In this document: positions 5,325 through 61,646 of the stretch, piece by piece
Layout: each line of letters starts with the position of its first letter
How positions within the stretch are numbered: position 1 is the stretch's first letter
Source of the DNA: Narcine bancroftii
Taxonomy: Eukaryota
Length of the DNA: 64,000 nucleotides
Assembly (NCBI RefSeq): GCF_036971445.1
Contig: NC_091471.1
Span: 132,990,001 to 133,054,000, forward strand
Direction of reading: 5' to 3'
Program-made: the position numbers and the translations under genes
The notes under the pieces: model-generated
Database searches by the model: none
The model's input: the letters and a program-made list of their open reading frames with translations, nothing else
Told to the model about the DNA's origin: nothing

Positions 5325-6323
5325 GGAACTCAGTAACAGCCCCTTGAGGGCACAGGTGGTGGTAGTTAAGAGTGGGGAGATTATAGCCAGACCATCAATA
5401 GGTCACGGTGAATTGACATGGTGAATGAGATTGCTCAGTGCTAGGTCTTTTCCACCATAGATCTTAAGTTGGCATACCACAAGATCCTGACCTACATGGC
5501 ATTCGAGGCCAATGGCCGCTTCTATCACTTTCTGTGGGTCCCATTCAGCCTCACGAATGGAGTGTCCGTGTTCCAAAGGGAAATGGACTGCATGGTGGAT
5601 GACAATAAATTAAAAGCCACCTATCCCTATTTGGATAATGTCACCATCTGCGGCCGTACCCAAGAGGAACATAATGAGAACCTGCAAAAGTTTCTGGATA
5701 CCGCAAGAAATCTGAACTTAACATGCAATTAAAAAAAGTGGGTTCAGTACCATGTGGTTGGCCATATTGGGGTATGTGGTGGAGCATAGTTTCATTGCCC
5801 CAAAACCTGAGCACATGCGCCCCCTGCTGGAAGTTTCACTGATCCAGAACCCCAAGGTGTTAAAAAGATGCCTGATGTTCTTCTCATACTGTGCTCAGTG
5901 GAATCCCAACTACTTGGACAAAGCCCACCCCCCGGTAAAAACAACCACCTTTCCTCCTTCGGTGGAGGACTGTGAGACATTCAAGGGCATTAAAAGGGAG
6001 ATTGCCAAGGCAGGCATGTATGACATTGATGAATCCATCCATTTTCAAGTAGAGAGTGATTCCTCCGACTTTGCCCTGGCTGTCACGCTGAACCAAGCAA
6101 GCAGGCCCAGAGCATTATTTTCCTGAATCCTCCAGGGCCCTGAACTCAGGTACTTGGCCACTGAGAAGGAGGCACAGGGTATAGTGGAAGCAGTGCACCA
6201 CTGGAGGCACTATTTGGCTGGCAGACCCTTCACTCTGTTGAAGGACCAGAGACCTATCAATTTTATGCTTAACAATAAACAGAAGGGAAAAATCAAAAAT
6301 AACAAGATTATGAGGAGGAGAAT
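5325..6323 (+). mobile_element. Gypsy (Mag-like) pol fragment: RT and RNase H, degraded
   Basis: AQVVVVK, PFSLTNGVSVFQR, YLDNVTICG, FQVESDSSDFAL, EKEA..HWRHYL motifs; related to the 19413-22971 element. Confidence 0.85.
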
Positions 6324-17164: not shown

Positions 17165-17859
17165 CTAAGAAATCACATTAAAACAGCTATAATTTCAAAC
17201 AATTAAAGAATAGCACTTTCTTTCAGGAATACAAAAACACCTGCATATTTGAAACTTAAAACTTTTAAGCTGTTTTTAAACTTGGCAGGTGAAGCACATA
17301 AACTTTCACCAATTCATCTGTGAAGGCAAACAGATGATCAATATTTCAGGTTGAGATCCTGCATCAGGACAGGGCAGACTAGTGATTAAGATGGTCTTGC
17401 AACATTCACAGAATATGCTTCTTATATTCTCTGATGTCTATGATCCCCAATCCCAAAAAGAGCAATTGCAACAAAGATTGGAAACATCATGTGCAAGTAA
17501 ATTCACTTTCCTTAGGACAGTGCAGCATAAGAATAGCATAAGAATAGGCCTTTTAACCAATGTTACCTGACAAATTTTAACTCATCCCATCTGTCAACAC
17601 AGTCCATTTTTTTTCCCATTCCCTTCCTGTTTATATGCCTCCTTACTGTTCCCACAGTATCTGCTTCCACCACTTCACCTGGCTACATATTCCAGGCACC
17701 TACCAATTTGTGTAAAAGAAAAAAAATGTCTGAAATCTCCTTTAAACTTTCCACTCTCACCTTCAACTCATGCCTGCTACCATTTAACATTTCCACTCTG
17801 GAACAGTCCTTTGAACATCTATGCCTCTCGTAGTTTTAGATATTTGTATCAGTGTGATA

Positions 17860-19407
17860 CAGACTGCTCAAACTACAGGGGAATTACGCTGCTCTCCATT
17901 GCAGGCAAAATCTTCGCTAGGATTCTCCTAAATAGAATAATACCTAGTGTCGCTGAGAATATTCTCCCAGAATCACAGTGCGGCTTTCGCGCAAACAGAG
18001 GAACCACTGACATGGTCTTTGCCCTCAGACAGCTCCAAGAAAAGTGCAGAGAACAAAACAAAGGACTCTACATCACCTTTGTTGACCTCACCAAAGCCTT
18101 CGACACCGTGAGCAGGAAACGCTTTGGCAAATACTAGAGCGCATCGGATGCCCCCCAAAGTTCCTCAACGTGATTATCCAACTGCACGAAAACCAACAAG
18201 GTCGGGTCAGATACAGCAATGAGCTCTCTGAACCCTTCTCCATTAACAATGGCGTGAAGCAAGGCTGCGTTCTCACACCAACCCTCTTTTTCAATCTTCT
18301 TCAGCATGATGCTGAACCAAGCCATGAAAGACCTCAACAATGAAGACTCTGTTTACATCTGGTACCGCACGGATGGCAGTCTCTTCAATCTGAGGCGCCT
18401 GCAAGCTCACACCAAGACACAAGAGAAACTTGTCCGTGAACTACTCTTTGCAGATGATGCCACTTTAGTTGCCCATTCAGAGCCAGCTCTTCAGCGCTTG
18501 ACGTCCTGTTTTGCAGAAACTGCCAAAATGTTTGGCCTGGAAGTCAGCCTGAAGAAAACTGAGGTCCTCCATCAGCCAGCTCCCCACCATGACTACCAGC
18601 CCCCCCACATCTCCATCGGGCACACAAAACTCAAATCGGTCAACCAGTTACCTATCTCGGCTGCACCATTCATCAGATGCAAGGATCGACAACGAGATAT
18701 GACAACAGACTCGCCAAGGCAAATAGCGCCTTTGGAAGGCTACACAAAAGAGTCTGGGAAAACAACCCAACTGAAAAACCGCACAAAGATAAGCGTATAC
18801 AGAGCCGTTGTCATACCCACACTCCTGTTCGGCTCCAAATCATGGGTCCTCTACCGGCATCACCTACGGCTCCTAGAACGCTTCCACCAGCGTTGTCTCC
18901 ACTCCATCCTCAACATTCATTGGAGCGCTTTCATTCCCTAACGTCGAAGTACTCGAGATGTCAGAGGTCGACAGCATCGAGTCCATGCTGCTGAAGATCC
19001 AGCTGCGCTGGGTGGGTCACGGCTCCAGAATGGAGGACCATCGCCTTCCCAAGATCGTGTTATATGGCGAGCTCTCCACTGGCCACCGTGACAGAGGTGC
19101 ACCAAAGAGGTACAAGGTCTGCCTAAAGAAATCTCTTGGTGCCTGCCACATTGACCACCGCCAGTGGGGCTTATATCGCCTCAAACCGTGCATCTTGGCA
19201 CCATCACAGTTCGGCGGGCAGCAACCTCCTTTGAAGAAGGACCGCAGAGCCCACCTCACTGACAAAAGCCAAAGGAGAAAAACCCAACACCCAACCCGAA
19301 CCAACCAATTTTCCCCTGCAACCGCTGCAACCGTGTCTGCCTGTCCTGCATCGGACTTGTCAGCCACAAACGAGCCTGCAGCTGATGTGGACATTTACCC
19401 CTCCATA
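17860..19407 (+). mobile_element. 5'-truncated RTE (BovB-like) LINE: RT and C-terminal region, frameshifted
   Basis: NYRGITLLS, LPESQCGFR, FVDLTKAFD, LFADD motifs; 12-bp TSD atcagtgtgata. Confidence 0.92.
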
Positions 19408-19412
19408 ATCAG

Positions 19413-22400
19413 TGTGATAGTACAGACCTATCACCAATGTATATAGATACAGTATCTAGAGTGTAATGACTGTGCTTACAGCGATTGGCTGAGAGCTTAG
19501 CCACGCCTACTGTCTGGGCCTTAAAGGGTTGTGTCCCTAGCCAGTCGGATCATTCCGGACTGGTCGGCCACCTGTGAAGAGCTCCTGTCTTTTGCTAATA
19601 AAACCTTGGTTTGGATCAACAAGTCTTTGGTTCTTTCGACAAGCTCTACAATTTTATTAGCAAAAATAATTTTTTTTTAAAAAAGGGATGGAGCATCTGA
19701 CTCGGCTAGAAAAACTTGACATCGACCCACAGTCAGCTACAGCCTTCAAAGCGTTTAGGTTCTGGCTGATGAACTTTGAAAAGTTCCTAACGCTCATTGA
19801 CGTGGAGGAGGATAACCAGTGTCTAACAGCATTGCTGTCTATGGTGTCCTTGAGAGTCTACGAGAACATCCAGGATGAGCCACTTACACCGCAGCCATAA
19901 AGGTACTGAAAGAACTGTACGATCAACCAATGAACAGAGTTCATGCCCGGCTCGTGCTTGCATTGAGGAAGCAACAGCCCGGCGAGTTCCAGCAGGGCAT
20001 ATTTACAAGTAGTAAAGGCGTTGGGCAAGGACTGTAACTGTGTGGACAAAACTGCTGCCGAGATCACAAACGATCTCGTCCGGGATACCTATGTGGCCGG
20101 GCTCCGATCGAACGAAGTGAGGCTGCGCTTGCTCGAGCAAGGGGTAGAAAAACTAGAGTACGTGGCCTGTATTGCAATCACAATGGAGGATGCAGCCTTA
20201 AAGTCAAACAAGTTTTCTAGGACTGGACCCCACGTTCTGATGTGAGTAGAGTGCCCTTCTACCCTACCACCCCCCGAGATACTGACGGCCTGTCGGCTGC
20301 TGCTACACTGCCCCCTGCGAACCCAAATGTTATTTCTGTGGGAGGGACAAGCACAGCAGGTCCCAGTGCCCAGCAAGAAAAGCCAGGTGCCAGAAGTGCC
20401 TTAAAAAGGGCCACTTTGCTGCAGTCTGTAGGTCTAAAATGGCCCGCCGGCAAACACAGTGCTTTGTGTGAAGCCCAAACGCCACTATCCCATCAAACAC
20501 TTCTTCCCCAGAGCTCTCGTCCAATGAGAGCGAGGGCTCCCCTGCACGGCAACGCCTGACATCACGGAGACGCCGAACCCGGAAGGGGCAGCCCACCCTC
20601 GCAACCATGATATTGGCCCACCTCTCGCCCACGTGCAGAACACTCGACCCAGCCTCGGCACCAACTGTAGAGCCCGCTATTGCCACTGCCACAGCCACCC
20701 CCGGGGCCGACGACGCCGCTGCCGCTGCCACCGAAACAGCCACAGCCACCCCCGAAGATGATGCTACTGCTACCACTGCCCGCTCCCCTGCTGCTGCTGC
20801 CCACGCTGCCACCGGTGCGGCCACCGCGACCGACTGGGGACCCGCAGCGGCCAACCAGGTACTCGCCCTAGTGTCCATCGCTGATGACCACTGAGGCCCG
20901 ACTGCCGCGACCGATGACCTACCCACCGCCAACCGCGAGCAACAAACCCCACTACTTACCATTCATCCGCCGACGCCGCCACAACACCACCTCCGGGAGT
21001 ACCTGCAACCTGCTTCTCCAGTGCTGACTGCGTCTGTGACGTCATCCCATTGCATGACGTCAACACGCAGAACTCCCCTGTCAACAGGATCAGTGGCTGC
21101 TTCTATCACACTAAATCAGCAATGCTCTCATCCCCTCACTAAAGCAATGGATCTGATTAAAGTGCATGGACACTACACCAATTACTTATTTAACTCTGGG
21201 TCAACTGACAGTTTTATCCGGCCAGATCTGGCCCTCCGTTGCGGATTTGACATTATCCCCACTGCCCAGAGGATCTCATTAGCGACGAGGTCGCACTCGA
21301 CCAGGATAAAGGGGTATTGCATCACCATGTTGGAAGTACAGGGGGTAACGGTCACCCACTTCAAATTATTCATCCTTCCCCAATTGTGCGCCCCAGCGTT
21401 GCTGGGATTAGACTTCCAGTGTCAGTTTCGAATGGTGTCCCTACACTTTGGGAGACCCCATGCCCCCATCTCGGTCTGCCATCGCCCCACCCCTGAAGCA
21501 CCCGAGCAACCCGTCCCCGTGCCCCAGGGCCACTCCTGCGGCCTTTCCACACTCCGGATTACCCCGCCAGCACGCTTCACAAACCTCACCCCTGGCTGGA
21601 AGCCTGTGGCCACCAAAAGTTGGCAATATAGTTACAAAAACAGGCAATTCATTAGGAGTGAGGTGCGTAGATTGCTGGATGAGGGCATCATCGAACCCAG
21701 TTCAAGTCCCTGGAGAGCCCAGGTGGTGGTTGTCAAGAACAGGGAAAAGCTACGGATGGTGGTCGACTAGAGCCAGACGATTAACCGCTTCATGCTCCTG
21801 GATGCGTAACCCCTGGCACGCATCACGGCTGTCTTGAACCAGATCGCCCAATACCGCATATTCTCCACCATTGACCTATATTCGGCCTACCACCAGCTCC
21901 TGATCCGCTGTGAGGACCGACCATTCACGGCCTTCGAAGTGAATGGGCGGCTGCATCAATTTCTCAGGGTACCATTCGGGGTCACGAATGGTGTCGCGGT
22001 CTTCCAGCTGGAAATGGACCAGATGGTGGACCAGAACGGGCTAACTGCTACCTTCCCGTATCTGGACAATGTCACCATCTGCGGCCACGACACTCAGGAC
22101 CATGACGCCAACCTAGACAAATTTCTTCAAACTGCCGGTCGGCTGAACCTGACCTACAATTCTTCCGGACCACACAACTCACGATTCTAGGTTGCGTGGT
22201 GGAGAACGGGGTAGTGATGCCAGATCCTGACTGCATGCGTCCCCTAATGGACTTACCCCACCCCCCATACCCAGAAAGCGCTCAAACGCTGCCTGGGCTT
22301 TTCTCATATTACGCCCAATGGGTTCCACACTACACCGACAAGGCGTGTCCTCTTATCAAGACCACCTCCTTTCCCTCTCGACCGAAGCCAAAGCGGCTTT

Positions 22401-22971
22401 CGATTGAATCAAATCCGACATCGCCGCTGCACTGCTGCACGCGATCGATGAGTCTGTCCCATTTCAAGTCTTCGCCCTGGCAGCCACCTTGAACCAGGCC
22501 GGTTGGCCTGTAGCCTTCTTCTCCAGAACCCTCCAGGGTCCAGAGAGTAGACACTCCTTGGTCGAGAAGGAGGCCCAGGCCATAGTTGAAGCGGTGCGTT
22601 GTTGGAGACATTACCTCGCTGGGAGGCGCTTTACACTGTTGACTGATCAACGGGCGGTCTCCTTCATGTTCAGCAACACCCTTCAGCCCTTCCACCCCAG
22701 GGTCAATTCTCCAAGAAGGGATGAATGTGATAGTACAGAACTATCACCAATGTATATAGTTACAGTATCTAGAGTATGTATGTAATGACTGTGCTTACAA
22801 CAATTGGCTGAGAATTTAGCCATGCCTACTGTCTGGGCCTTAAAGGGTTGTGTCCCTAGCCAGGTCGGATCATTCCGGACTGGTCGGCCACCTGTGAAGA
22901 GCTCCTGTCTTTTACTAATAAAAGCCTTGGTTTGGATCAACAAGTCTTTGGTTCTTTCGACGAGCTCTACA
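19413..22971 (+). mobile_element. Gypsy (Mag-like) LTR retrotransposon, integrase deleted; LTRs 19413-19650 and 22726-22971; TSD ATCAG
   Basis: LTRs differ by about 9 substitutions and 3 indels by eye. Gag has two CCHC knuckles (CYFCGRDKHSRSQC; CQKCLKKGHFAAVC); protease NSG; RT YLDN; RNase H; purine tract before the 3' LTR. Confidence 0.95.
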
Positions 22972-23339
22972 ATCAGTTTACCCTATTCTACTTTAACAAA
23001 CTTTTTTGATCATCCATCTCAATCAGTTATGTGGCTTAGCATCACTTTTTCCAGCTCAGCTAAATGCACCAAATAAATTAAAGTTGTAGGGCTTCACCTG
23101 TTGCATAAATGGTACCAATACCACAATGACATCTTAAATTTAAACAGCACAGTAACAGAACCTGTGCCACCCAATTAACCTACAACCCCTGGTACATTTT
23201 AAAGGATGGGAGGAAAGTGGAGCACCCGGAAAAAACACACGTGGACATGAGAAGAACATACAAACTCTTTACAGACAGCATGGGATTCAAAACCTGGCCC
23301 CGATTGCTGGTGGTGTAACAGCATTGTGCCAACTGCTAT

Positions 23340-23557
23340 TTCTTTCTTTGGCTTGGCTTCGCGGACGAAGATTTATGGAGGGGGTAAAAAGTCCACGTCA
23401 GCTGCAGGCTCGTTTGTGGCTGACAAGTCCGATGCGGGACAGGCAGACACGATTGCAGCGGTTGCAAGGGAAAATTGGTTGGTTGGGGTTGGGTGTTGGG
23501 TTTTTCCTCCTTTGCTTTTTGTTCGTGAGGTGGGCTCTGCGGACCGCAGACCGAAGA
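23340..23557 (-). mobile_element. Short RTE 3' fragment inserted in a SINE, 11-bp TSD ccaactgctat
   Basis: Same family as 17860-19407; TSD at 23329-23339 and 23558-23568. Confidence 0.88.
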
Positions 23558-26619: not shown

Positions 26620-29579
26620 AGGGGGGATGCCAAGTGATGGCGTGGGGTTAGATTTGAAATCCCTTCTCTCGCCATACAAGTTTTTTTTACAAAAGTTTAA
26701 AAGGCTGGTGATTAAAAGAAAATAGAAAGAAAAGCTGTTGGAAGGCCTACAGAACAATACAGAATGTCACCTAAAAAGGGTAAAATGGTTACTCTCTTTC
26801 AAGAACTTAAACAAGAAAATGAAACAGATAAAGAGAGCCCTACCTTGAAGAAGGATCCTATAGCTGTCCAGAAGGTAGGAGCCCATGAGGATAAGCCTGG
26901 AGCTGGGGAGACCTTGGACATTGCTGTGCAGTATATCCAACAATGGTCACCTGCCATGGGAGGAGAAATGACTCTGCATATGCGCGACTCCTTGCGGATG
27001 TGCAGAGCACAGAAAAAAATGGAGGAAATTTTTAAAAAGGCTCAAGAACCCTCCACTCCAATGATCAAGTAGAAGAACAGGAAGAAGAAGAAGAAGAAAA
27101 AACATGTAGAACAAAGAGTCTTGACTAAAAAACAAGAGAAAATAAAAGAGACGTATATCTACAATATCTACAACAGAAATAGAAATGAAGAAATATATGG
27201 ATACTTTTCAGCAATGTCTGGTGCAATTGACAATGGAAGTTAAAAAAAAATGTAATGAGAGTATATTTGAAAATCTTCTTTCTTTGGCTTGGCTTCGCGG
27301 ACGAAGATTTATGGAGGGGGTAAAAAGTCCACGTCAGCTGCAGGCTCGTTTGTGGCTGACAAGTCCGATGCGGGACAGGCAGACACGATTGCAGCGGTTG
27401 CAAGGGAAAATTGGTTGGTTGGGGTTGGGTGTTGGGTTTTTCCTCCTTTGCCTTTTGTCAGTGAGGTGGGCTCTGCGGTCTTCTTCAAAGGAGGTTGCTG
27501 CCCGCCAAACTGTGAGGCGCCAAGATGCACGGTTTGAGGCGTTATCAGCCCACTGGCGGTGGGTTTTGCAAAAACGGTGGAAAAAAATTTTGTCGTAAAT
27601 GGATAAAAAATTTGTAGTAGTGGAAGAAAAAAATTAAAAGGAATGAATTTGAAATTCAAGATGTTAAAGAACAAAGTTCAAGCAGAAGTAGCCGCAACAA
27701 AAGAGCAACTAACTCAAAAAATTGATATGTTAGCAAGTTTCAGTAGAAGAAACAACATAAAAATTGTTGGATTTAAAGAAGCTGATGAAGGATAAGACGT
27801 TGGATTCTGCAATCTTTGGGGGTAAATGAATTTCAAGGAGATATCGAGATTGAAAGAGCCCATAAAAGCGTTATGACAAAATCCATAGCCAGAACAAAAA
27901 CCATGTTTGGTACTGGTCAGGTGACTTTGTTACAAAGTGAGGGAGAAGATCTTGGAACTGGCAGCGAAACAAGCGAAAGACAATCACCATTAATTTACAA
28001 TGGAAATAAGATCTTCTTTTACCCTGATATAAGTTTTGATTTGTTGAAAAAAAGGAATTCAATGCTGTTAAAAATGTGCTATGGAAAAAAGGTTATACTT
28101 TCATTTTAAGGTATCTGGCAGTATTGAATTTTTGTTCCTGAAGGAAAAAAGAGATTTTTTTTGGAATCAAGTGCAGCAAAAGTGTTTGCAGATTCATTGC
28201 CTGAGAAAAAAAAAAAACAAGAAACGAGAACTGGGGGATGTCAGAAATGAAAGAGGATGTATAAAGATTTCAGCTGAGGATATAAAGAAAAGATATGTTT
28301 TGAGAGCAAAAGAGTATCAGAGAGGAAAGTTCTTACCCAATAGATCTAGGGAAAAATAAATAAATTGGAAAGTGGTAGAGACTGAATAGATCAGAGGCAA
28401 TAATAAACAGTATAATGTTTCGGGGGAGTTAGTTAGGAGCATGAGCCTGGTCCTGAGAAGTCATACGAGGGGGTGTGTTTTTGATCACAACTCCTACAGA
28501 TGAGGGAAGGATGTATCATTAATAATATACACCTTTAGTTGAGGTGGGGGGGGGGTTCTATCTTTTTCTGTATTTCTTTTCCTTTACTTTACTAACACAT
28601 CTGAATATAATAATATTATGAATGATATTGTTAGCATTTTAAATGAGAGAGGAGTGGAGGTGGAAAGATGGACGGTTAGATTATGTGGAAGACTAGATGG
28701 CTGATAAATTAAATTTTATTAGAATTAATATTAACAGGATTAAAAATGTCAAATAAAGTGCTAAAAATTATTAGTATACAAGAAAAAAAGAGACATTGTT
28801 TTTCTACAAGAAAAACATTTGACAGAAAAAGAACATGAAAAATTAAAAAGAGATTGGGTAGGGAATGTAGTAGCATCATTATTTAACTCTAAGGCTAGGG
28901 GTACATGAATATTGATAAATAAAAAATTGCCAGTTAAAATATTGGATACTAGTATAGATGTATCTGGAAGATATGTTATGGTAAATTGTCAGATCTATTC
29001 AGAACAATGGACCCTAATGAATGTATATGCAGCAAATGTAGATGATGGTAAATTTATGCAAGATCTTTTTATGCATTTATCTAATGCTAAGGGGAAAGTT
29101 ATACTAGGGGGAGATTTTAATTTTGCTTTAGACCCTAAATTAGATGGGTCAGGAGATAAAGTGATGAAAAATTTAAAAAATGGTAATAGATTTAATGAAA
29201 GATATGGACCTCGTGGATATCTGGCGAAAAATGTATCCAAATGAAAATGATTATTCCTTTTATCCTTTTCGATATAAAACATATTCACGAATAGATAAGT
29301 TTTAAATTTCTGCACAATTTCAACATCAAGTACAAAAGGTAGAATTTCAGATAATTCGTCTTTAATTTTGTAAATTTTGCTGGAAGAGCAAAAGATTAGT
29401 TATAGATGGAGGTTAAAAACAATTTTATTGAAGAAAAAATAAGTTTGTGATTATGGTTGGGGAGAAAATTTAAGTCCTTTTTTTGTATTGTTACATATGA
29501 TCAGACAATAAATATTGTATTCATTGAATTTTTCTGTTGTGTTTGTATTGATACCAATTATAAATACATTTTTTTTAAA
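26620..29579 (+). mobile_element. Nested, internally deleted L1 (5'UTR, ORF1, EN domain, 3' tail), 13-bp TSD aacagaacaatgt
   Basis: TSD at 26607-26619 and 29580-29592; EIERAH, IFFYPDIS and GGDFN motifs. Confidence 0.85.
27274..27561 (-). mobile_element. Short RTE 3' fragment within the nested L1
   Basis: Near-identical to 23340-23540. Confidence 0.88.
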
Positions 29580-44510: not shown

Positions 44511-45374
44511 ATGGCCAACCCAGAGGAAGAAGAAGAGGAAGAGTACAATGAAATAGAAGAAGGGAAAGGCAAGATAAAGGATATACTTTCTCTTATTAAA
44601 GGATACATGGAGTTATTTAAAGAATGGCAAACACAGGAATTTAATGATTTAAGAAGAAGAAGAAACAACACAGAAGAGAAAATGAATAAAATAGATATGA
44701 CCTTAACAGAAATGGGAAAGAAAATGGACAAGATGGAAGAGCGGGCAGTAGCAGCAGAAATGGAGGTAGAGGACTTAAAAAAGAAATTAGAGGAATCTAA
44801 TAAAAAAGCTATAGAGACACAAGAACTGTTAGCTCAGAAAATAGATATAATGGAAAATTATAACAGAAGAAATAACATAAAGATAGTGGGCCTTAAGGAA
44901 GATAAAGAAGGCAAGAATATGAGGGAGTTTATAAAAGATTGGATCCCTAGGATCCTAGGATGTCCAGAACTACAGCAAGAAATGGAAATAGAAAGGGCAC
45001 ATAGAGCATTGGCCTTTAAACCACAACCACAACAAAAACCAAGATCTATTTTAGTAAAATTCCTAAGATATACAAGAGAAAAGATACTGGAGAAGACAAT
45101 GGAAAAGGTAAGAGAGGGCAACAAGCCACTGGAGTATAAAGGGCAAAAAATCTTCATTTATCCAGATATAAGTTTTGAACTCCTAAAGAGGAGAAAGGAG
45201 TTCAATACAGCAAAGGCGATTTTATGGAAGAAAGGGTATAAATTTATACTAAAGCATCCAGCGGTATTGAAAATATTTATTCCAGGAAAACAAAACAGAC
45301 TATTCTCAGATCCAGAAGAAGCACGAAAATTTGCAGAACAATTACAAAATAGACGGAGAGATGAAGACGTGTAA
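44511..45374 (+). CDS. L1 ORF1p (coiled coil, RRM, CTD); true start possibly at 44137
   Basis: ENYNRRNNIKIVGL, EIERAHR, PRSILVKF, IFIYPD motifs. Confidence 0.9.
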   Translation: MANPEEEEEEEYNEIEEGKGKIKDILSLIKGYMELFKEWQTQEFNDLRRRRNNTEEKMNKIDMTLTEMGKKMDKMEERAVAAEMEVEDLKKKLEESNKKAIETQELLAQKIDIMENYNRRNNIKIVGLKEDKEGKNMREFIKDWIPRILGCPELQQEMEIERAHRALAFKPQPQQKPRSILVKFLRYTREKILEKTMEKVREGNKPLEYKGQKIFIYPDISFELLKRRKEFNTAKAILWKKGYKFILKHPAVLKIFIPGKQNRLFSDPEEARKFAEQLQNRRRDEDV

Positions 45375-45877
45375 TGAGAGTAAAAATGATCACGATTGAT
45401 ATGTATGTGGGTAAAGAGGTATAAGAGTGTATAGGTATAATGTGCATACGTGAATATATCTGTACCTAGAGGAAAATATAGATAGTATAGACAAGAATTA
45501 ATAAGGGAAGGTAATGGAATAGAGAGAATAAGGAGGGAATTAAAAGAGTGACCTTTGTTACATATGAAAAGTGAAATCTTTTCTGGGGGTGGTTGGGTGG
45601 GGGGGAATAGCGGTCACTGCAAAATCAGTTGACGCTTGCGAGTGAATTCGCAAACCCAAATGGAGAGGGGAGATGTGGTTGTCCGACAAGGGATAAAGGA
45701 CAACTCAGGAGGGGAAGGGGAGATTGGGGCTAAAGAAGTAATAAATAGGAGAATAAGGAAAATGTTTGATGTTTTAGGAATGTTGTCTTATAAAGGGTTT
45801 AAAATAAGAAAACAGAAATGGAAAAGGAGGAAAGGTAATGATGGAAAAACGGAAAGGGAAGATAAACAAAGTATAAA

Positions 45878-48800
45878 ATGGCTATGTTGAACTATATGAC
45901 TTTAAATATTAATGGAATACATAACCAAATTAAAAGGAAGAAACTGCTAAATTTACTGAAAAAAGAAAAAATTGATATAGCATTTGTCCAAGAAACACAC
46001 TTAACTGAATTGGAGCACAAGAAATTAAAGAGAGATTGGGTAGGACATGTAACAGCAGCATCGTATAATTCAAAAGCAAGAGGAGTGGCTATATTAATTA
46101 GTAAAAATGTGCCATTTAAAATAGAAGAGGAAATAATAGATCCAGCAGGGAGATATGTAATGATAAAATGTCAGATATATTCGGAGTTTTGGAATCTACT
46201 TAATGTATATTCACCTAACGAAGAAGATCAAAAGTTTATGCAAGATATCTTTTTGAAGGTAGCTAATACGCAAGGGAACATACTAATAGGAGGGGATTTC
46301 AACCTGAATTTGGAATCAAATATGGATAAAACTGGGAAAAAAATTAACAGAAAGAACAAAGTAACCAAATTTATAATTAAATCAATGCAAGAAATGAAAC
46401 TTTTGGATATATGGAGGAAACAAAACCCAAAAGAAAAGGAATATTCATATTACTCGGCTAGACATAAAACATACTCAAGAATAGACCTATTTTTGTTATC
46501 AGCTAGTATGCAAGATAGAGTAAGAAAAACAGAATATAAAGCTAGAATACTATCGGACCATTCACCCTTAATATTGACAGTAAAGCTAGAGGACATCCCT
46601 CCAAGAATGTATAGATGGAGATTAAACCCCATGCTACTTAAAAGGCAGGATTTTAGAGAATTTATTGAAAAACAATTAAAAATGTATTTTGAAATAAATA
46701 CGGAATCAGTGGAAGATAAGTTTATACTATGGGATGCAATGAAAGCATTCATTAGAGGGCAAATAATAAGTTATGTAACCAAGATGAAGAAGGACTATAA
46801 TCAGGAAACAGAGCAGTTGGAAAGGGAAATAGTAAATATAGAAAAAAAATTAGCAATGAAGGAAGATACAACTAAAAGAAGAGAATTGGCGGATAAAAAA
46901 ATAAAATATGAAACATTACAAACATATAAGGTAGAGAAGAATATAATGAAGACAAAACAGAAATATTATGAACTGGGTGAAAAAACGCACAAAATCCTAG
47001 CATGGCAGCTTAAGACAGAACAAGCTAAGAAAATGGTATTGGCATCAAGGAAAAAAGACAAACAAATTACATATAATCCAAAAGAAATTAAGGAAAACTT
47101 TAGAGAATTCTATGAACAATTATACCGAACTGAAAACGAAGGGAAAGAAGGGAAAATAGATGAATTTTTGACTAAAATTGAACTACCAAAACTACAAATA
47201 GAGGAACAAAATAAATTAACAGAACCATTTGGAACAGTAGAAATACAAGAGATAATAAAAAAATTACCAAATAATAAGACACCAGGAGAGGATGGATTTC
47301 CAATAGAATTCTACAAAACATTTAAAGACTTATTAATTCCGCCCCTCCTGGATGTAATCAACCAGATTGATGAAACACAAAGCTTACCAGATTCATGTAA
47401 AACAGCAATAATTACAGTAATACTAAAACAAGGGAAAGATCCACTCTCACCAGCGTCATATAGACCAATATCTTTACTAAACACAGATTATAAGATAATA
47501 GCTAAACTATTAGCAAACAGATTAGCAGAGCAGGTACCGAAAATGGTAAATTTAGACCAAATTGGATTTATCAAAAAAAGACGCACAACAGACAATATTT
47601 GTAAATTTATTAACTTAATTCATGCAATAGAAGGAAATAAAGCACCTACAGTAGCAGTTGCTTTAGACGCAGAGAAGGCCTTCGACAGAGTAGAATGGAA
47701 TTATTTGTTCAAAGTATTGCAAAAATTCAGTTTACCGGAGAAGTATATTAATTGGATTAAAGCATTATATAAGGGACCGTTAGCGAAAGTGACAGTAAAT
47801 GGACATGTATCAAAGCAATTTAACTTAAGCAGGTCAACGCGGCAGGGATGCCCACTATCACCTTTATTGTTTGCATTAGCTATAGAAACACTAGCAGAAT
47901 TGATAAGAATAGATAATAATATAAAAGGAATAAAAATAAAAGACAAGGAATATAAAATCAGTCTATTTGCAGATGATGTTATAGTGTACTTAACAGAACC
48001 AGAACTATCAATAAAAGAATTATATAAGAAATTGAAGGAATATGGAGAAGTGTCGGGTTACAAGATAAACGTAAATAAAAGTGAAGCAATGCCTATGAAT
48101 AATGCGGATTTCTCAAAATTTAAGAAGGAATCTCCATTTAGATGGCAAATGCAGGCAATAAGATACCTAGGTGTACAAATAAACAAAAATCTCGGCCAAT
48201 TATATAAACTCAATTATTATCCACTAATGAAAAAATTACAGGACGATTTAGAGCATTGGAAAGATTTACCATTAACACTAATAGGAAGGATAAACTGTAT
48301 TAAAATGAACATTTTTCCAAGGATATTATATTTATTTCAGGCATTGCCAATACAACTGACAGAAAAATTCTTCAAAGAGTTAAAGAAAATAATAAGGAAA
48401 TTTTTATGGAGAGGGGGGAAACCGAGGATAGCACTAGATAAATTAACAGAATGGTATAAACAAGGAGGCTTACAATTGCCAAACTTTAAAAATTATTATA
48501 GAGCCGCACAATTAAGATACCTATCAGATTTTTATCAAACAAGGGAAAAACCAGACTGGACGAGATTAGAATTAGATAAAATAGGGGAAAAGATATCTGA
48601 ACACATATTATATAAATGGGATGAAAAATTGGTACAACATAGAAGTTCTCCAGTATTACATCATCTCCTCAATATTTGGAAGAAGATTCATGTAGAAAGA
48701 AATAAAACAAATTATCAATTACCAAAACTAATATTGACGCTAAATAAGTTACTCCCTTTTACAATAGATAACCTTTCCTTTAGAGAATGGGAAAAAAAAG

Positions 48801-49675
48801 GGATTAAAAGAATAGAAAATTGTTTATCAGGAAGTAGATTCTTATCCTTTGAACAAATGAGAGATAAGTACAATATAACTGGAGATACAGCGCTGGCATA
48901 TTACCAATTGAGATCCTACTTGAAGGATAAATTAGGAAGCAGTTTGAGTTTGCCAGAGGGAAGTAACCTTGAATATGTGATTACAGATACAATGTTAATC
49001 AAAAGATTTATAACAAATATGTATATTAAACTGCAAGAAAAGGAAAATGCGGAAACAAATGGTAAAACTAAACAAAAATGGGAACAAGATTTAAATATAA
49101 AGATAAAAAAGGAAACATGGGAGAAATTATGTTCTGGAACGATGAGAAATACAATAAATACGAGGCTACGTATGAGACAATATAACTGGTTACACAGACT
49201 ATACATTACACCGCAAAAGTTAAATAAATGGGACCCAACAGTATCTGATAGATGTTTTCGATGTAAAAAAGAAATGGGAACAACAATTCATGCAATCTGG
49301 ACATGTGAGAAAGTAGAAAAATTTTGGGATGATCTCAATCAGATATTAAATAAAATAACAGAAAACAATATACCAAAGAATCCAGAGATCTTTCTCCTAA
49401 GTAACATAAAAAACAAAGAATTTGGAATTGATTTGGAGGATGCACAAAAAAGATTTGTTAAGATAGCTCTAGCCGTAGCAAAAAAATGTATTATGTCAAC
49501 CTGGAAATTGGAAGATAATCTGAAAATACAACAATGGTATATAGAAATGAATAAATGTATTCCATTAGAAAAAATTACATATAGTTTAAGAAATAATATT
49601 GAAATATTCGAACAAATATGGGAGCCTTACATTAAATACAATAGCGAAAACCTACCGGGGACAATCATTACCTAA
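45878..49675 (+). CDS. L1 ORF2p, 1265 aa, intact APE endonuclease, RT and CCHC
   Basis: NING, QETH, GDFN, SDH; YRPISLLN, QGCPLSP, FADD; CFRC...H..WTC. Confidence 0.97.
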   Translation: MAMLNYMTLNINGIHNQIKRKKLLNLLKKEKIDIAFVQETHLTELEHKKLKRDWVGHVTAASYNSKARGVAILISKNVPFKIEEEIIDPAGRYVMIKCQIYSEFWNLLNVYSPNEEDQKFMQDIFLKVANTQGNILIGGDFNLNLESNMDKTGKKINRKNKVTKFIIKSMQEMKLLDIWRKQNPKEKEYSYYSARHKTYSRIDLFLLSASMQDRVRKTEYKARILSDHSPLILTVKLEDIPPRMYRWRLNPMLLKRQDFREFIEKQLKMYFEINTESVEDKFILWDAMKAFIRGQIISYVTKMKKDYNQETEQLEREIVNIEKKLAMKEDTTKRRELADKKIKYETLQTYKVEKNIMKTKQKYYELGEKTHKILAWQLKTEQAKKMVLASRKKDKQITYNPKEIKENFREFYEQLYRTENEGKEGKIDEFLTKIELPKLQIEEQNKLTEPFGTVEIQEIIKKLPNNKTPGEDGFPIEFYKTFKDLLIPPLLDVINQIDETQSLPDSCKTAIITVILKQGKDPLSPASYRPISLLNTDYKIIAKLLANRLAEQVPKMVNLDQIGFIKKRRTTDNICKFINLIHAIEGNKAPTVAVALDAEKAFDRVEWNYLFKVLQKFSLPEKYINWIKALYKGPLAKVTVNGHVSKQFNLSRSTRQGCPLSPLLFALAIETLAELIRIDNNIKGIKIKDKEYKISLFADDVIVYLTEPELSIKELYKKLKEYGEVSGYKINVNKSEAMPMNNADFSKFKKESPFRWQMQAIRYLGVQINKNLGQLYKLNYYPLMKKLQDDLEHWKDLPLTLIGRINCIKMNIFPRILYLFQALPIQLTEKFFKELKKIIRKFLWRGGKPRIALDKLTEWYKQGGLQLPNFKNYYRAAQLRYLSDFYQTREKPDWTRLELDKIGEKISEHILYKWDEKLVQHRSSPVLHHLLNIWKKIHVERNKTNYQLPKLILTLNKLLPFTIDNLSFREWEKKGIKRIENCLSGSRFLSFEQMRDKYNITGDTALAYYQLRSYLKDKLGSSLSLPEGSNLEYVITDTMLIKRFITNMYIKLQEKENAETNGKTKQKWEQDLNIKIKKETWEKLCSGTMRNTINTRLRMRQYNWLHRLYITPQKLNKWDPTVSDRCFRCKKEMGTTIHAIWTCEKVEKFWDDLNQILNKITENNIPKNPEIFLLSNIKNKEFGIDLEDAQKRFVKIALAVAKKCIMSTWKLEDNLKIQQWYIEMNKCIPLEKITYSLRNNIEIFEQIWEPYIKYNSENLPGTIIT

Positions 49676-53155: not shown

Positions 53156-56100
53156 TGTAGTGATAGAATGCTAGTCACCCTCCTGACCACTAAAGGGAGA
53201 CAGAGATTAGTTTGCTGCATGGATACAAGATGGATGCCTCCACACGGACCTAAGTGAGTTATTTAGCTAATAAATTAGTTGTTTTAAAAGAACCCAAGTT
53301 TATTTATTACAATAAAAGAAACATTACATCCTATCAGGAGTGCAAATTAGTCAATATAACAGTAGAGAAATGTAAAATGTGAATATTCCTGATGCTGTAA
53401 ATTGGACTGGAAATACTGACCATGAGTGGAGGCTGTTCAAAGATTCATACTGTACCTGCAAGCCATTGGAGTCAATAGCAAGTCTGATGTACAGAAGACT
53501 CCATTGCTACTTACCTTGGTGGGATCTGAAGCACTAGAGGTTTTAATACATTTGTTTTTGCTAGGTCAGATAACTAAAGCAAGTTTGACAAGGCTATCAA
53601 GATGTTTGATGACCAGAAAAAAAAATGAAACAGCTGCAGGGAGAGAGCTTTGATATGTTTTTTTTTTAAATACAAATGGACATGAAAAGCTGAAAGCTTC
53701 AATGATCCATGATCAAATTGTGTTTGGGATTATTGATAAGAAATTGAGAAAGCGGTTGCTGCGAGAGACAGAGCTTAACTTGGGTGGAGTTGTGAAGATA
53801 TGATGCGCCAGTGAATTAGCTCTGCAGCACACAAAAAAAGTTCAGTAAGGTCCAAAACCCAGTGAAAACAAAGGCATAGGCATAGCCACTGTGTGACCAC
53901 ACACACAAACAAAAAATTAGATATAGGAAACAACAACAAAAAAAATGGAGAGACATTCAAGTGTAAATGATGTGGCATTTAACATGCACCAAAACAATGC
54001 CCAACCTATGGAAAAGTCTGATAAGTTCAAAGGGCAGAATCACTAAGCAAAGCAAAGTTTTTCCAAAGGGAAATAAAACAGGTGAAAGCATGCATACTGT
54101 ACACACTATAGAAGAAACTGCTCTCCGTGATACACTTTGAGGCCATGGTAGTGCAGGAAGATTATAAACCAACAGACACTGAACAGTCAAGTGTGAACAG
54201 ATTCAAGCAGGACAAGTGGACGGTGTCATTGCATACAAATGTTCCTTTCAAGCTGGACACCAGGAAATCCAAGCAGATTGCAGCTGAAACAGAAAATGAT
54301 AGGTCTATAGAACGTCATCAAGAATCTGAATGAAGAGGAGTCATGTGATGGAGTAGTGGCCGGTCAGGAAAATCACCCCTATCCAGGAAAATAGGAAAAA
54401 AGTTAGAAAAAAGCAAAGCATAACAAAAATAAAATATAAGAAATAGAAGATAAAGATACAGAGAAGAGAAAGAAGATGGCTTCCAAGAAGGAGAAAGTAA
54501 AAGCAACTGGAAAAATAGTAGAAAAGTCACCGGAGAAGAAAAAGGCCTTACCTGCAAGAAGGAACTGGGCACTGCGGTGGCAAGGAGCGCCCGACCCCTG
54601 AGATCAGTGCCTGCCCTCCAGAGTCGTGACTCACCAGCCAGTGAACTACAAAAATGGCTCTCAGAGCCAATCAAAAGTGCGCAAAGAGGACAACCGGCGA
54701 GAGGGGGGGCTCAGCAGAAGAGCAGGCTGCCACAGAGCGAACAGCTGAGGAATGTCCGACACCAGGGCGCTCAGCTGGAGGACGAGGAAGGCAGCAGAAG
54801 AGGGAGCAATGAAAGGTGTGGGAGATAGACAGAGGGATGACTGACAAGAAGATCAATGTCAGGAAGCACAACAGACGAGCAGACCAGGAGGGGAGGACCA
54901 GCAAGAAGAGGCCCGACAAAGAGATACAAGCAGCTCATCAGGAAAAATGGAAGAGACACAGACAAATAAGAGAAGACACAAACACAGGTACAGACACAGA
55001 AGAAGAGGAAGAAGAAGACCAAGATCTTCACAGAGAAATAGAAGGTAAAACTGATGGACAAAGATAAATAAAAGGTAAAACTGATGAACAGAATATAGAT
55101 AAAGTTTTTTTTTGAAGAACAAATGAGATCACTAAAAGAATGGTTATCATTAGAATTTAATGCAATTAAAAGGAAAATGAAAAGAACAGAAAATGCAAAG
55201 GTTAAAACTGGTAATGACAGAAATAGAGAAAAGAGTAGAGAATGTGGAAGAGTGGGGAATGGCTGTAGAAATGGAAGTAAATAACTTAAAAGAAAAATTG
55301 GAAAAAAGTGAAAAAAATTAGAGACACAAGAGTTGTTAGCTCAGAAAATTTATATGTTGGAAAATTATAGTAGGCGAAACAACATAAAAATAGTGGGCCT
55401 GAAGGAGGGTGAAGAAGGCACAGACATGAAGGAATTTATAAAAGGATGGATCCTGAAGGTTCTGGAAACAACAGAAATGCAGGAAGAAATGGAAATAGAA
55501 AGGGCACACAGAGCATTAGCTCCAAAATCACAGGCACATCAAAAACCAAGATCCATCTTAGTAAAATTTTTGAGATACACGACAAGAGAAAATATACTGG
55601 AATGGGCAAGGAATAAAGTTAGAGAAGATAATAAACCATTGGAATACAAGGGTCAAAAAATATTTTTTTTACCCAGACATAAATTTTGAACTCTTAGAGG
55701 AGGAAGGAGTTTAATATAGCAAAATCGATTTTATGGAAAAAAGGTTACAAATTCACATTTAGATATCAAGCTGTGCTTAAAATATTTATACCCGGGAAGC
55801 AAAACAGACTCTTCTCAGATCCAGAGAAAGTGCAAGAATTTGCAGAACATTTGCAGGACAGGCGAAGAGATGAAGAGATGTAACAAGAATGAAGAACGGC
55901 GATAAAGTATATATAAAGATGTAAAAACAATGTATATGTAAAGAACTAGAGAGGGAAAATAGAAGGGAAGGAAGGAAGTGAGGGGGGAAAAAAGAGGGTT
56001 TTGTTATGTGTTAAAAGAAGTGTTTTCTGGAGAGGGCTGGGTAGAGGGGGAATAACCATCACTGCAAAATCAGTTGACGGTGCGAACAAGAACGCAATCC

Positions 56101-59100
56101 AAATGAAAAGGGGAGTTGTGGTTGCCCGGAAAGGGATATGGGGCAACTCAGAGGGGGGGGGACTTTTGGGGTTAAGGTTTTAGTGGATGTGGGAACTGCG
56201 CGGGTACTTTATTTCTTAAATGTGTTGGTGTACATTAAGTGTAATAAGAGAAAACTAAGAGATAAAAATTAGGAAAAGGGGGATGGAGGTGGCGAAGAAG
56301 TGTATGCAAGATACAAGATGGTCATGTTGAATTATATGACTATAAACATTAATGGAATATATTACCAAATTAAAAGGAAGAGGTTACTAAATTTAGTAGG
56401 AAAAAATAGATATATACAGCATTTGTGCAGGAAATGCATCTAACTGAAGCAGAACATAACAAAGAGAGACTGGGTAGGACACGCAACAGCAGCATCCTAT
56501 AATTCAAAAGCTAGAGGTGTAGCCATACTAGCTAATAAAATTGTACCAATTAAAATAGAGGAGGAAATAATAGATCCTGCAGGGAGGTATGCAATGATAA
56601 AGTGTCAAGATATACTCAGAATTTTGGAATTTGCTCAATATATATGCATCTAACAAGGAGGATCAAAAGTTTATGCAGGATATTTTTTTTGAAGATTGCA
56701 GACACACAAGGAATAGATTGATAGGAGGGGATTTTAACTTTAATTTGGACCCAATGTTGGATAAAACTGGACAAAAGACAAGTAAAAAGAATAAAGTAGC
56801 CAATTTTTTGGTTAAATCAAAGCAGGAAATGAAACTTATGGATATATGGAGGAGGCAACACCCAAGAGAGAAGGAATTTTCATATTATTCGAGTAGGCAC
56901 CAAACTTACTCAAGGATTGATATGTTTTTGTTGTCGGCCCATATTCAAGGGAGAGTGAGGAAAACTGAGTATAAAGCTAGACTACTATCAGATCATTCAC
57001 CCCTATTATTAGCAATAGAACTGGAGGCCATCCCACCAAGAACATATAGATGGAGGTTAGGGAGTTTATTGAATGCCAAATTAAAACATTCTTTGAAATA
57101 AACACAGGATCAGTGAAAGACAAATTTATATTATGGGATGCAATGAAAGCCTTCACTAGAGGGCAGATAATAAGTTATGTGACTAAGATGAAAAAGGATT
57201 ACAATCAGGAAATAGAGCAGTTGGAAAGGGAGATAGTAAGTACAGAAAATAAACCAGTAAAAAGGGATGATATAACAAAAAGGAGAGAATTGGCAGATAA
57301 AAAAATTGAAAACGAAACATTACAAACGTAGAAGGTGGAGAAGAACATAATGAAAACAAAAGTGTTACAAACTGGGACAAAAAACACATAAAATATCAGC
57401 CTGGCAACTTAAAACAGAACAAGCTAAAAGAACGATACTGCCACCAAAAAAAAAGGACAAACAAATTACATATAACCCAACAGAGATTAATGAAAATTTT
57501 AAGGAATTTTATGAACAATTGTATCAAACTGAGAACGAGGGGAAAGATGATAAAATAGAGGAATTTTTAGCTACAATTGAACTGCCAAAATTGCAAGAAG
57601 AGGAACAAAACAAACTAACAAAACCATTTGAAATAGAGGAAGTACAGGATATATTAAAAAAGCTGCTGAACAATAAAACACTAGGAGAGGATGGATTTCC
57701 AATAGAATTTTATAAAACATTTAGAGTTATTTATTTCTCCTCTCCTGGAAGTAATGAAAATGTCTCTAAACTTATAAATCTAATCCACACAGTTCAAGGA
57801 AATACGAAACCAACAGTGGCTGTTGCTCTAGACGCAGAAAAAGCCTTTGACAGAGTAGAGTGGAACTACTTAATTAAAATATTACAGAAGTTCAATCTAC
57901 CAGGAAAATATATAAATTGGATTAAAGCATATAATGGATCATTGATGAAGGTAGCAATAAATGGATATGTATCGAGTCACTTTAAATTAAGTAGGTCAAC
58001 TAGACAGGGATGTCCACTATCCCCCTCATTGTTCGCCTTAGCAACAGAACCTTTGGCAGAACTGATAAGAATAGAAAATAAAATAATAGGGATAAAAATC
58101 AAAGAGAAGGAGCATAAAATCAGTTTATTTGCAGATGACATCATAGTATACCTAATAGAACCAGAAGTATCAGTAAAAGAATTACATAAGAAATTGAAGG
58201 AATATGGAGAAATATCAGGGTACAAGATCAATGCAAATAAAAGTGAAGTGATGCCAATGAGTTACGCAGTCTATACAGAATTTAAAAAAGAATCACCATT
58301 TAAATGGCAAGCACAAGCAATCCGATACCTAGGAATCAGGTTAGATAAGCCACTTGTACAAACTAAATTATCAGCCACTAATAAAGAAATTGCAGGAAGA
58401 CTTAGAACATTGGAAGGAATTACCGCTAACGTTGATAGGGAGGGTAAACTGCATTAAAATGAACGTGTTTCCAAGGATACAATACTTATTTCAAACATTA
58501 CCAATTATTTTAACAGAAAAATTCTTTAATGAACTAAAGGGAATAATAAGGAAATTCTTGTGGAAAGGGAGGAAACCAAAGGTAGCATTAGATAAATTAA
58601 CAGAAAGGTATAATCAAGGTGGTTTGCAGTTACCAAATTTTAGAAATTATTATAGAGCCGCACAATTAAGGTATTTATCAGATTTTTACCAGACAAGGGA
58701 AAAACTAGACTGGACTAAGATAGAACTAGATAAAATAGGGGAGAAGGTACAGGAACATATACTTTATAAGTGGGATGAAAAGCTGGTGTAATATAAAAAC
58801 TCACCAGTACCGCATCATTTACTTAATACATGGAAGAAGGTCCACTTAGAAAGGAAAAAAAACAAATGATCAAATACCAAAATTATTATTGACGCAAAAT
58901 CCGCTAATCCTTTTTACAATAGACAACCTTTCCTTTAGAGAATGGGAAAGAAAAGGAATCAAAAGAATACAAAATTGTTTTTTGGGGAACAATTTATTAA
59001 CATTTGAACAGTTGAAGTACAAAAATGGAATAACTCATGGTACAATGTTTGCATATCATCAATTGAAATGCAAACATTGTACCATGAGTTATTCCATATT

Positions 59101-61646
59101 TGTACTTCAACTGTTCAAATGTCAATTGAAAGCTTACTTAAAGGATAAATTGGGAAACAGCTTGAGATTACCTGAAGGAAGCAGCTTTGAATATGTGATT
59201 ACAGACGCAATGATAATTAAAAGATTTATAACCAACATGTACATTAAGCTGCAAGATAAGGAAAATGAAATAAACTATAAACCTAAGCAGAAGTGGGAAA
59301 AGGATCTAAACATAAAGATAAAAAATGAAATATGGGAAAAGTTATGTTCTGGAACTATGAAGAATACAATAAACACAATGTTACACATGATACAGTATAA
59401 TTGGTTACACAGGGTATATATTACTCCTCAAAAATTAAAAAAAAATGGGATTCAACATTATTGGATAGTTGTTTTCGCTGTCAGAAGGAAATGGGAACAA
59501 CATTATATCCAACTTGGGCATGTATGAAAGTGAATACATTTTGGGAAGAACTAAATCAGATACTAAATAAAATTACAAAAAATAACATACCAAAAAAAAA
59601 AAAATTTCTTTTAATTAACATGGGAAGTAGAGAATTAGACCTCAAATTGGATAAAGTGCAAAAAAAAATTCATTATGATAGCCTTACCGATAGCAAAAAA
59701 ATGTATCATGTCAATTTGGAAAATGGAAGAGACCATGAGTATACAGCAATGGTACATGGAAATGAATAAATGTATTCCATTGGAAAAAAATAACATTTAA
59801 TTTAAAAAATAAAGTCACAATGTTCGAACAAATTTGGGAACTATACATGGAACATATCAGAGAGAGCTTGCCTACGACCTCCATCCCCTAAAATGGGAAT
59901 GATAAGACAAAATGACTAGATTCAGTGTGTAATAAATGCATTTATTACATTATGTGTAATAGATGCATTTTTCTTGTTTATTTTCCTTTGTGTGAAGATA
60001 TTGTTTTATGGTTTTATTGTATTGTATATCTTGAATATTTATGGGTTTTGGAGGGGGGTGGGGAGAGGGGAGGGAGGGAAAGGGGAAAAAAAAGGGAGAA
60101 AAGACCACTGTGTAAATTTCATGAGAAACGTTTGTACATATTTTGATTGATTTGGTTCATAGTGTGAAAAATAAAAAATAATATTAAGAAAATTTGAATG
60201 AATGATGGCCTAGAGATGAATGTCAGCCATAATACAACATCAGAGCTGAGTGTTGTCAATGGGCTTCTACTCAGACAGAGCAGAATTGTCATTCCTCAAT
60301 AAGTGTGACAAGAAATGCTGAAAGGGGTGTACGAGGGTCACTTTAAAATGGGAAAAATGCAAGAGGACCAGAACTGCTGTTTATTGGCTAGCGATAAACA
60401 CTGACATTGACAGAATGGTTTCAAGCGATGATACCGGTTTGAAATACTACACCAATCAGACAAAGGAATCCATGATCATAACTGACTTACCAGCAGAACC
60501 ATGGCAGAAAGTAGGGACTGATCTGTTCCACCTGGATGAAAGAATTACTTGCTGGTTATTGATTATCTATCAAACTATCCGGAGAATGCATTGGTTCCTA
60601 ACATGTCCGCTGTTTTCAACGATATGAAATCAGTCTTTGAAAGACATGGAATTCCTCAAATTCTCTACAGTTGTAGAGAATTCCAGAACTTTGCAAAAGA
60701 GTACGATTTTTGACATGGACTTCAAATCCTCTACATCCATAGACAAACAGTAAAACAGAGAAAGTTCACATAGTTTAAAAAGTTGCTCAAGAAAGCACTA
60801 GACGGTGGCTCAGATCCGATTCTAGCTCTATTGAGTTACAGAAATTCACCACGTGAACATGGCATGTCACCCGCTGAGCTTCTGATGGGATGTAGACTAC
60901 GCACCACACTTCCTTCTCGGCAGACCCAAACAAAAACAGATATCAAATGGAAACAAAAGTGTCTGCAATGGAGACAAAAAGCAAACTATGACAAGTCAGC
61001 AAGAGGTTTAGGGCCACTGGCACAACATGACACAGTGAGACCCAGAGATTCCAACATTTGGGAGAAGAAGGCCACTGTTCTGGAGGAAGTAAATCCAAGA
61101 TCCTTCACTATCAGAACAGAGGGTGGTCAAATACTGAGGAGGAATCAAAAGAGCCTGCTGAAAGTGAAAGGGACACTGCAGGAACAGACAAATGCAGAAG
61201 ATCCAGCCTGGACAGCAACAGAGGAAACACCCCCAGTGCTAGACAGGAGTGAACCAGCAGAGCTGACACAAGCATCTGTGTTAAGAAGACCCACCTGTGT
61301 TATCAAGGCACCTGACAGGCTGAATCACTAAAAGAAAAAAAGAACTGCACACTTAATAAGTTTGTACTGCTGATGTTTGGGTTTACATTTGTGTTGAATT
61401 TTAAATGGAAATTAATACTGTATTAGTATGTCAAGTGGTTAGATTAAACATCTCAAGGAAAGGGGATGTAATGATAGAGTGCTAGTGATCCTACTGACCA
61501 CTGGAGAGACTCAGAGACTAGTTTGGTTACAACTTGGTTTGGATTCAAGATGGATGGCTCCACACAGTCTTGTGTACTTTAGATAATAAAGTACAATTGT
61601 TTTATAAGAACTCAACTTTCTTTATTACAATAAAAGAAACATCACT
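53156..61646 (+). mobile_element. Older Gypsy LTR element, RT/RNase H deleted; LTRs 53156-53328 and 61467-61646; TSD TTTG
   Basis: Diverged but alignable LTRs; degenerate tRNA-Leu-like PBS (tcctatcaggagtg); gag knuckle; FKLDT protease start; integrase (PWQKVGTDLF, ALLSYRNSP..SPAELLMG); PPT aaggaaagggga. Confidence 0.85.
54335..60190 (+). mobile_element. Near full-length degraded L1 nested in the Gypsy element
   Basis: Related to 44004-49942; TSD aat(c/t)tgaatgaa at 54323-54334 and 60191-60202; frameshifts and an RT deletion. Confidence 0.92.

Follow-up and report, generated by a model that had tools for sequence, protein, structure and literature searches.

The primer-binding site (PBS) of a Ty3/Gypsy retrotransposon in Narcine bancroftii is the exact reverse complement of 14 nt within the element's own long terminal repeat (LTR), and comparison among families establishes at the sequence level that this PBS-LTR pairing, found throughout a clade of related elements in many animals, is no chance match. 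The finding is a variant of known self-priming, real and clade-wide. We consider it probable that the PBS of this Gypsy clade is primed by the front of the element's own capped RNA, a piece of ~52 nt, and not by a tRNA. More tentative, and in our judgement somewhat short of an even chance, is the fuller proposal that the clade is a large animal one and independent of Tf1/sushi elements, that its ~52-nt capped primer is cut at the end of a working poly(A) signal, that one helix serves as both primer duplex and 5' poly(A) switch, that solo LTRs may supply primers in trans, and that dozens of fossils of primer copying give the primer length from DNA alone.

Structure of the element

Within the 64,000-nt stretch of DNA that was analysed (the window), the Gypsy insertion spans 3.56 kb, with an LTR pair bounded by TG...CA, a target duplication, and a polypurine tract all present (Table 1). 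The 5' and 3' LTRs differ by 9 substitutions over 238 aligned bases. No integrase was seen 5' of the 3' LTR in the window copy, and the order protease-RT-RNase H-integrase was found in the relatives P0001, P0075, and P0094. Among solved structures the RT was best matched by that of Ty3, and the closest named proteins are from rays and sharks, followed at a greater distance by those of crustaceans, a soft coral, snails, and an ant. The LTRs, the domain order of the relatives, and the affinity of the RT together identify the element, as judged from its sequence, as a Ty3/Gypsy LTR retrotransposon.

Table 1 Features of the Gypsy element, numbered by position in the window
Feature	Position	Strand	Remarks
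Target-site duplication ATCAG, 5 bp	19408..19412		second copy at 22972-22976
5' LTR, 238 bp	19413..19650	+	TG...CA
TATA-like TTAAAG	19521..19526	+	putative; 31 nt 5' of the likely start
Likely transcription start	19552	+	A of TCATTC; two retrocopies with target duplications
Predicted self-primer, ~52 nt	19552..19603	+	start site to arm end
R	~19552-19618	+	
LTR arm of 14-bp duplex	19590..19603	+	includes poly(A) signal AATAAA, 19597-19602
Poly(A) addition zone	19615..19621	+	mode ~19617-19618; from retrocopy tails
U5	~19619-19650	+	
One-base spacer	19651	+	LTR end to PBS
Self-complementary PBS	19652..19665	+	without TGG
Broken gag-pol	19688..22700	+	stops and frameshifts
Protease	within 21120-21560	+	
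RT	21810-22157	+	YLDN motif
RNase H	22411-22700	+	
Polypurine tract	22713..22725	+	precedes 3' LTR
3' LTR, 246 bp	22726..22971	+	arm with one substitution; antisense arm absent after LTR

Several other repeats occupy the window. The 3' end of a LINE that we take to be RTE-like (17500-19410) directly precedes the Gypsy element, and two 99% identical inverted pieces of that LINE's end lie downstream (23340-23542 and 27276-27478). At 5326-6300 lies an older fragment without LTRs; it stems from a sister element that belongs to the RT clade of the Gypsy element, and its DNA identity over the RT is ~73%. Two L1-like copies, ~80% alike, are found at 44800-49600 and 55300-59800, and the former contains an open frame of 1,269 codons (45866-49675).

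Pairing between the PBS and the LTR

The original prediction had described a 14-nt reverse complement one base past the 5' LTR, closing a loop of 48 nt, and on recheck this proved exact: TTTTGCTAATAAAA at 19590-19603 and TTTTATTAGCAAAA at 19652-19665 pair over their whole length, and the 14-bp pairing cannot be extended at either side. The antisense arm is found 3' of the 5' LTR only, and the LTR boundaries bear out the earlier statement that it has no counterpart after the 3' LTR. In passages of PMC6317226, self-priming is recognized by a segment of at least 10 nt, that starts 0-5 nt past the 5' LTR, to which it is complementary; the window copy has 14 nt at offset 1. When the LTR was shuffled 20,000 times with its dinucleotides preserved, the longest anchored match was 12 nt, and no shuffle reached 13 or the observed 14. 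The folding energy was ordinary for a 141-nt region (z -0.42) and a 146-nt region (z -1.07), and a z of -2.89 was obtained for a tight 86-nt segment that was picked afterwards; because the folding energy of the wider regions is ordinary, the case for the stem rests on its conservation. Both arms were present in all of the best 30 genome copies, with single changes in a few, and the exact pattern of the LTR-end/PBS junction occurred at 2,053 places in the genome.

Relatives were gathered by protein only: gag was searched for three times in the own genome, and contigs from metagenomes, viruses, and genomes were scanned, the viral contigs yielding one distant element and nothing beyond. Sufficient upstream DNA was available for 154 of the 158 gag-start loci; these were clustered, and each cluster was represented by its first member, with the stem playing no part in the selection. 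Perfect matches of at least 11 nt between PBS and own LTR were present in 14 of 20 families from other assemblies (median 13), as against 4 of 380 swapped pairs, and none of 100,000 permutations matched the observed mean PBS-LTR pairing. The six representatives below 11 nt showed wobble, a mismatch, a wrongly picked gag, or no stem that could be found. For the clusters of the own genome, in which many copies are decayed and the hexamer is common to families, the corresponding figures were 7/21 and 15/420. With all copies counted (less eight duplicate rows, and with one frameshifted singleton removed from the cluster list) such matches to the own LTR were present in 73/111 and 27/35 copies; because the families are related, none of these counts represents independent origins. 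The covariation that the original prediction had proposed to look for is therefore present, since the PBS changes with its own LTR, and the complementarity, whose loss in sister families had been named as evidence against a functional stem, is kept clade-wide.

Arm/PBS pairs that exemplify these changes are TTTTAGTTAATAAAA/TTTTATTAACTAAAA, TTTTGCTGATTAAA/TTTAATCAGCAAAA, and TGAGTCGTTTAAA/TTTAAACGACTCA; further examples, set side by side, are CAAGTTTATTAAA/TTTAATAAACTTG and CAAGTTGATTAAA/TTTAATCAACTTG. An automatic rule resolved the register of the pairing in 35 of 40 hand-picked loci; in the remaining five, the LTR end was mutated, the pairing was offset, the gag was a wrong one, or no stem could be found. 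Among the 35 copies thus resolved, the PBS begins one base past the CA of the LTR and the 3' end of the arm points toward the LTR end, and the polarity of the stem is correct for extension into U5. Each of the arm positions -7, -8, and -9 shows all four types of Watson-Crick pair, which constitutes compensatory change. Between arm position -10 and PBS position 10, a G-C pair is almost fixed (G in 34 of 38 rows) while its neighbours vary, perhaps reflecting contact with the RT or a nuclease.

Transcript ends deduced from retrocopies

Both ends of R could be placed from copies that LINEs had made of the element's transcripts. The arm followed by an A run occurred at 11 places, and a control pattern at none. 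Among 14 poly(A)-tailed places, the tail began 12-18 nt past the arm in 11, and at exactly 15 nt in 6; two of the tailed places are paralogous, L1 ends precede several, and candidate target duplications were noted at several. Because the tails of these retrocopies begin 12-18 nt past the arm, the AATAAA in the LTR arm, which had been recognized earlier as a poly(A) signal, is by the evidence of these genomic sequences a working one, with cleavage at ~19617-19618. The sequences at L286-L295 suggest that L1 read-through transcripts terminated at the LTR's poly(A) site and were then retrocopied, as 3' transductions.

Two retrocopies begin 38-40 nt ahead of the arm. In the family of the window element (L284/L294), an insert flanked by target duplications consists of an extra G, R beginning at the counterpart of 19552, and a tail; in a sister family (L289) the build is the same, with an extra G, R from the 19552-equivalent base, a tail, and target duplications. 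An extra untemplated 5' G is tied to copying of the cap in passages of PMC9341517. The search for further G-start copies gave 26 places and no additional tailed retrocopy. Four sets of contigs presumed to derive from RNA yielded nothing that bears on the start, the end, or the poly(A) site. Given the two G-start retrocopies, the transcript likely starts 38 nt ahead of the arm, at 19552, and the TCATTC at this position is what we take to be an initiator-like motif. From the retrocopies, the poly(A) signal is able to fire ~45 nt from the cap. A start 11 nt before the arm end, at which the conserved G at -10 had hinted, was ruled out by the retrocopies and by pairing that continues beyond 11 nt.

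Insertions with an extended PBS

Some insertions carry a PBS that continues past its normal end. At L341, which was found by a pattern that selected for this end point, a whole 5' LTR is followed by a PBS that continues into R in reverse complement, reaches the start site, and there gives way to pol. An unbiased junction search gave 243 + 177 places (420), of which the first 90 + 70 usable ones were examined, with some tandem repeats among the listed places falling outside the examined set. A whole U3 was carried by 124 of these 160 extended junctions, and their sequence marks them as products of DNA fold-back or loop inversion, not of primer copying; the same route could be the source of some of the other 36 junctions too.

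Merging of shared junctions and of one tandem class, and exclusion of three without a whole LTR, reduced these 36 junctions to ~24 independent events. Relative to the start site, 11 of them end at +5 to +29, 9 at -6 to +4, none at -19 to -7, and 4 further upstream, with end points blurred by a few bases through junction microhomology. The step of 9 versus 0 at the start site (two-sided p 0.004, for an interval partly chosen after seeing the data) suggests that a capped RNA primer, still attached, was copied into the plus strand, an event that predicts such a step. The pile-up is weaker in the sister family, with 2 of 8 events, which are only 2 of the 9 start-site ends, and a 4-bp hairpin that spans the start site in both families could cause the polymerase to pause there. 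In many extended-PBS insertions the sequence continues with a jump to gag, pol, or integrase, as predicted for an aberrant second strand transfer.

At the DNA level, the two arms render the element liable to loop inversions and fold-back palindromes (L380-L539; L085, L094, and L139), and the fold-back class includes tandem arrays of ~278 bp.

Proposed priming mechanism and alternatives

In the mechanism that we favour, the capped front of the transcript, starting at 19552, would fold onto the PBS at 19652-19665. A cut directly after AATAAAA (19603), which by analogy with Tf1 may be made by RNase H, would free a primer whose putative start and length give ~52 nt; the freed piece would then be extended across the LTR end, and the ~15 remaining bases of R (19604 to ~19618) would serve the first strand transfer. 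Because the likely start lies 38 nt before the arm, the predicted primer comprises ~52 nt, unlike that of Tf1, which consists of the first 11. The tRNA-free self-priming of the original prediction is thus supported by covariation and by the tRNA test described below, and indirectly by the genomic traces of primer copying. A hairpin stacked at the cut site can be seen in several invertebrate families, but its 113 occurrences do not differ significantly from the 104 expected from shuffles, and it was dropped as a candidate feature.

In the genomic RNA, the 3' copy of R, which the original prediction had allowed as a pairing partner, contains the same arm, and either this copy or, in trans, a short capped R transcript of a solo or 3' LTR, trimmed of its tail, might be the primer. 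Short transcripts from start to poly(A) site do exist, two having been retrocopied, and LTRs with no PBS after them are common among the LTR hits. Both sources, however, require the loss of ~15 nt and the tail, the cis helix is predicted by folding at a probability near 1, and a 3' R primer, having U3 in front of it, would not be expected to give a step at the start site, which disfavours the 3' R option in particular. We consider a primer from either source unlikely, although the trans version fits these data as well as the cis version, and the two cannot be told apart. A helix that is solely regulatory, hiding the 5' poly(A) signal or controlling packaging or translation while another primer is used, would agree with the AATAAA or ATTAAA in 28 of 35 arms and with folding that hides the hexamer in the 5' context only; moreover, a signal that works 45 nt from the cap has to be silenced in the 5' copy. 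Yet masking needs no exact one-base offset from the LTR end, such as the 35 resolved copies show, families without a canonical hexamer retain the helix, no alternative primer site is present, and the end points of the extended PBS step at the start site. An exclusively regulatory role is accordingly improbable in our estimation.

Priming by a tRNA half, a tRNA fragment, or another host RNA would reduce the LTR match to an A/T-rich coincidence. The arms are indeed A/T-rich, and the fold of the whole region is ordinary, as given above. The tRNA search called for by the original prediction spanned 35 genomic tRNA genes, representing 14 types, and found no match to the PBS longer than 7 nt, the best being with the anticodon loop of tRNA-Ser(GCT); no tRNA 3' end in this set matched at more than 7 of 18 positions, and an Rfam search of the region gave no match. 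Against such a primer stand the parallel changes of each family's PBS and its own LTR and the failure of any shuffle to reach 13 nt; the covariation of these sequences largely refutes a host RNA primer, to which we assign very little probability. Self-priming by the element's own capped RNA front remains the reading that we prefer.

Possible masking of the 5' poly(A) signal

For three copies folded in the 5' context, the hexamer had a predicted pairing probability of 0.97-1.0, as against 0.28-0.65 for the window element in the 3' context, and in one sister LTR taken alone 4 of 6 hexamer bases were already predicted to be paired. On these folding models, it is plausible, with the chances about evenly balanced, that the helix hides the poly(A) signal of the 5' LTR only. 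Masking, the second role that the original prediction gave to the stem, is not obligatory, because 7 of the 35 arms, belonging to four families, have no canonical hexamer and keep the stem (two of these 7 have a hexamer in the loop); it is likely to be a secondary benefit that is not common to all families. The overlap of arm and hexamer could alternatively arise from a constraint on the cut, since strand transfer requires some R to remain between the cut and the poly(A) site. With respect to U1, no 7-of-9 site was present in the window's first 850 nt, and one was present in a young copy.

Relation to known systems

To our knowledge, Tf1 of fission yeast is the only element in which self-priming has been elucidated, and by prediction it extends to chromovirus relatives and one plant Copia lineage. 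We found no description of it in a non-chromovirus animal Gypsy clade in the literature within reach of our search, beyond which lay most subscription journals and Repbase Reports, and figure labels or supplements may name the clade. In Repbase, the label 'self-primed' may be attached to certain animal Gypsy families, or 'Self' to a lineage, which is a risk to novelty.

Pairing of the PBS with the element's own 5' LTR RNA is described, in passages of PMC7175516, PMC4600332, and PMC6317226, for Tf1 and Tf2 of Schizosaccharomyces pombe, Tj1 of S. japonicus, and the Tf1/sushi and Tcn1 chromoviruses. The Tf1 group and the present clade have in common that they are Ty3/Gypsy elements whose PBS pairs with their own LTR RNA and which use no tRNA, as predicted here for the clade. 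In Tf1, the primer consists of the RNA's first 11 bases, released by an RNase H cut between bases 11 and 12, whereas in this clade the arm lies ~38 nt inside the transcript and ends at the poly(A) hexamer, the pairing is mostly 12-18 bp, and the primer is predicted to be ~52 nt. No chromodomain followed the integrase in any of the four relatives with an integrase that were scanned, and a chromovirus outgroup was not obtained from the genome, where none of four chromodomain hits adjoins an integrase. Because no chromodomain was found, the element is probably not a member of Tf1/sushi, a placement also disfavoured by the distance of the arm from the transcript 5' end. The comparison with Tf1/sushi made in the original prediction thus holds for the mechanism and fails for group membership.

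In an RT-RNase H tree built from 54 of 56 loci with hits and 11 proteins, with no Tf1 or sushi reference included, the self-paired elements form one clade with a support of 1.0. The nearest outgroups, presumably Mag-like and Gmr1-like Gypsy elements, differ from this clade in having primer sites that start with TGG (L111, L210, L212, L214, L279, and L280); L111 is similar in LTR layout, with an AATAAA near the LTR end. The animal Gypsy elements at L202-L214 come from contigs assigned to bacterial genomes, and in all likelihood represent host DNA that was taken up in those assemblies. The animal Gypsy clades Cigr-1, Mag C, and MolGy are named in PMC6238403, in passages that do not deal with primer sites.

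Outside the chromoviruses, self-priming is also predicted from LTR-PBS complementarity for the TAR lineage of plant Ty1/copia elements (Houba and Osr-1), according to passages of PMC6317226, and in this respect the TAR lineage resembles the present clade. For HIV-1, portions of PMC5961354 and PMC3694450 describe silencing of the promoter-proximal AAUAAA, for which an inhibitory RNA structure, proximity to the cap, and U1 binding are invoked. The HIV-1 hairpin lies within R and a tRNA is the primer, whereas here the antisense arm is the PBS itself, outside the LTR and at the 5' end only.

If the proposed mechanism is correct, these elements would represent a second self-priming lineage, one widespread in animals, in which tRNA-free priming arose again with a different design, namely an internal arm, a long capped primer, and overlap with the poly(A) signal. 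Control through tRNA fragments would then not reach them, and a single helix would provide an explanation for the silencing of the 5' poly(A) signal in an LTR element. Retrocopies and rearranged insertions can, moreover, yield exact coordinates for start, cut, and poly(A) addition without an active element. In the invertebrate families represented by L057, L061, L072, L081, and L047, a pyrimidine tract followed by CAG was seen by eye in the LTR upstream of the arm, together in some with a GT donor-like site, and these motifs suggest a leader intron in some invertebrate families.
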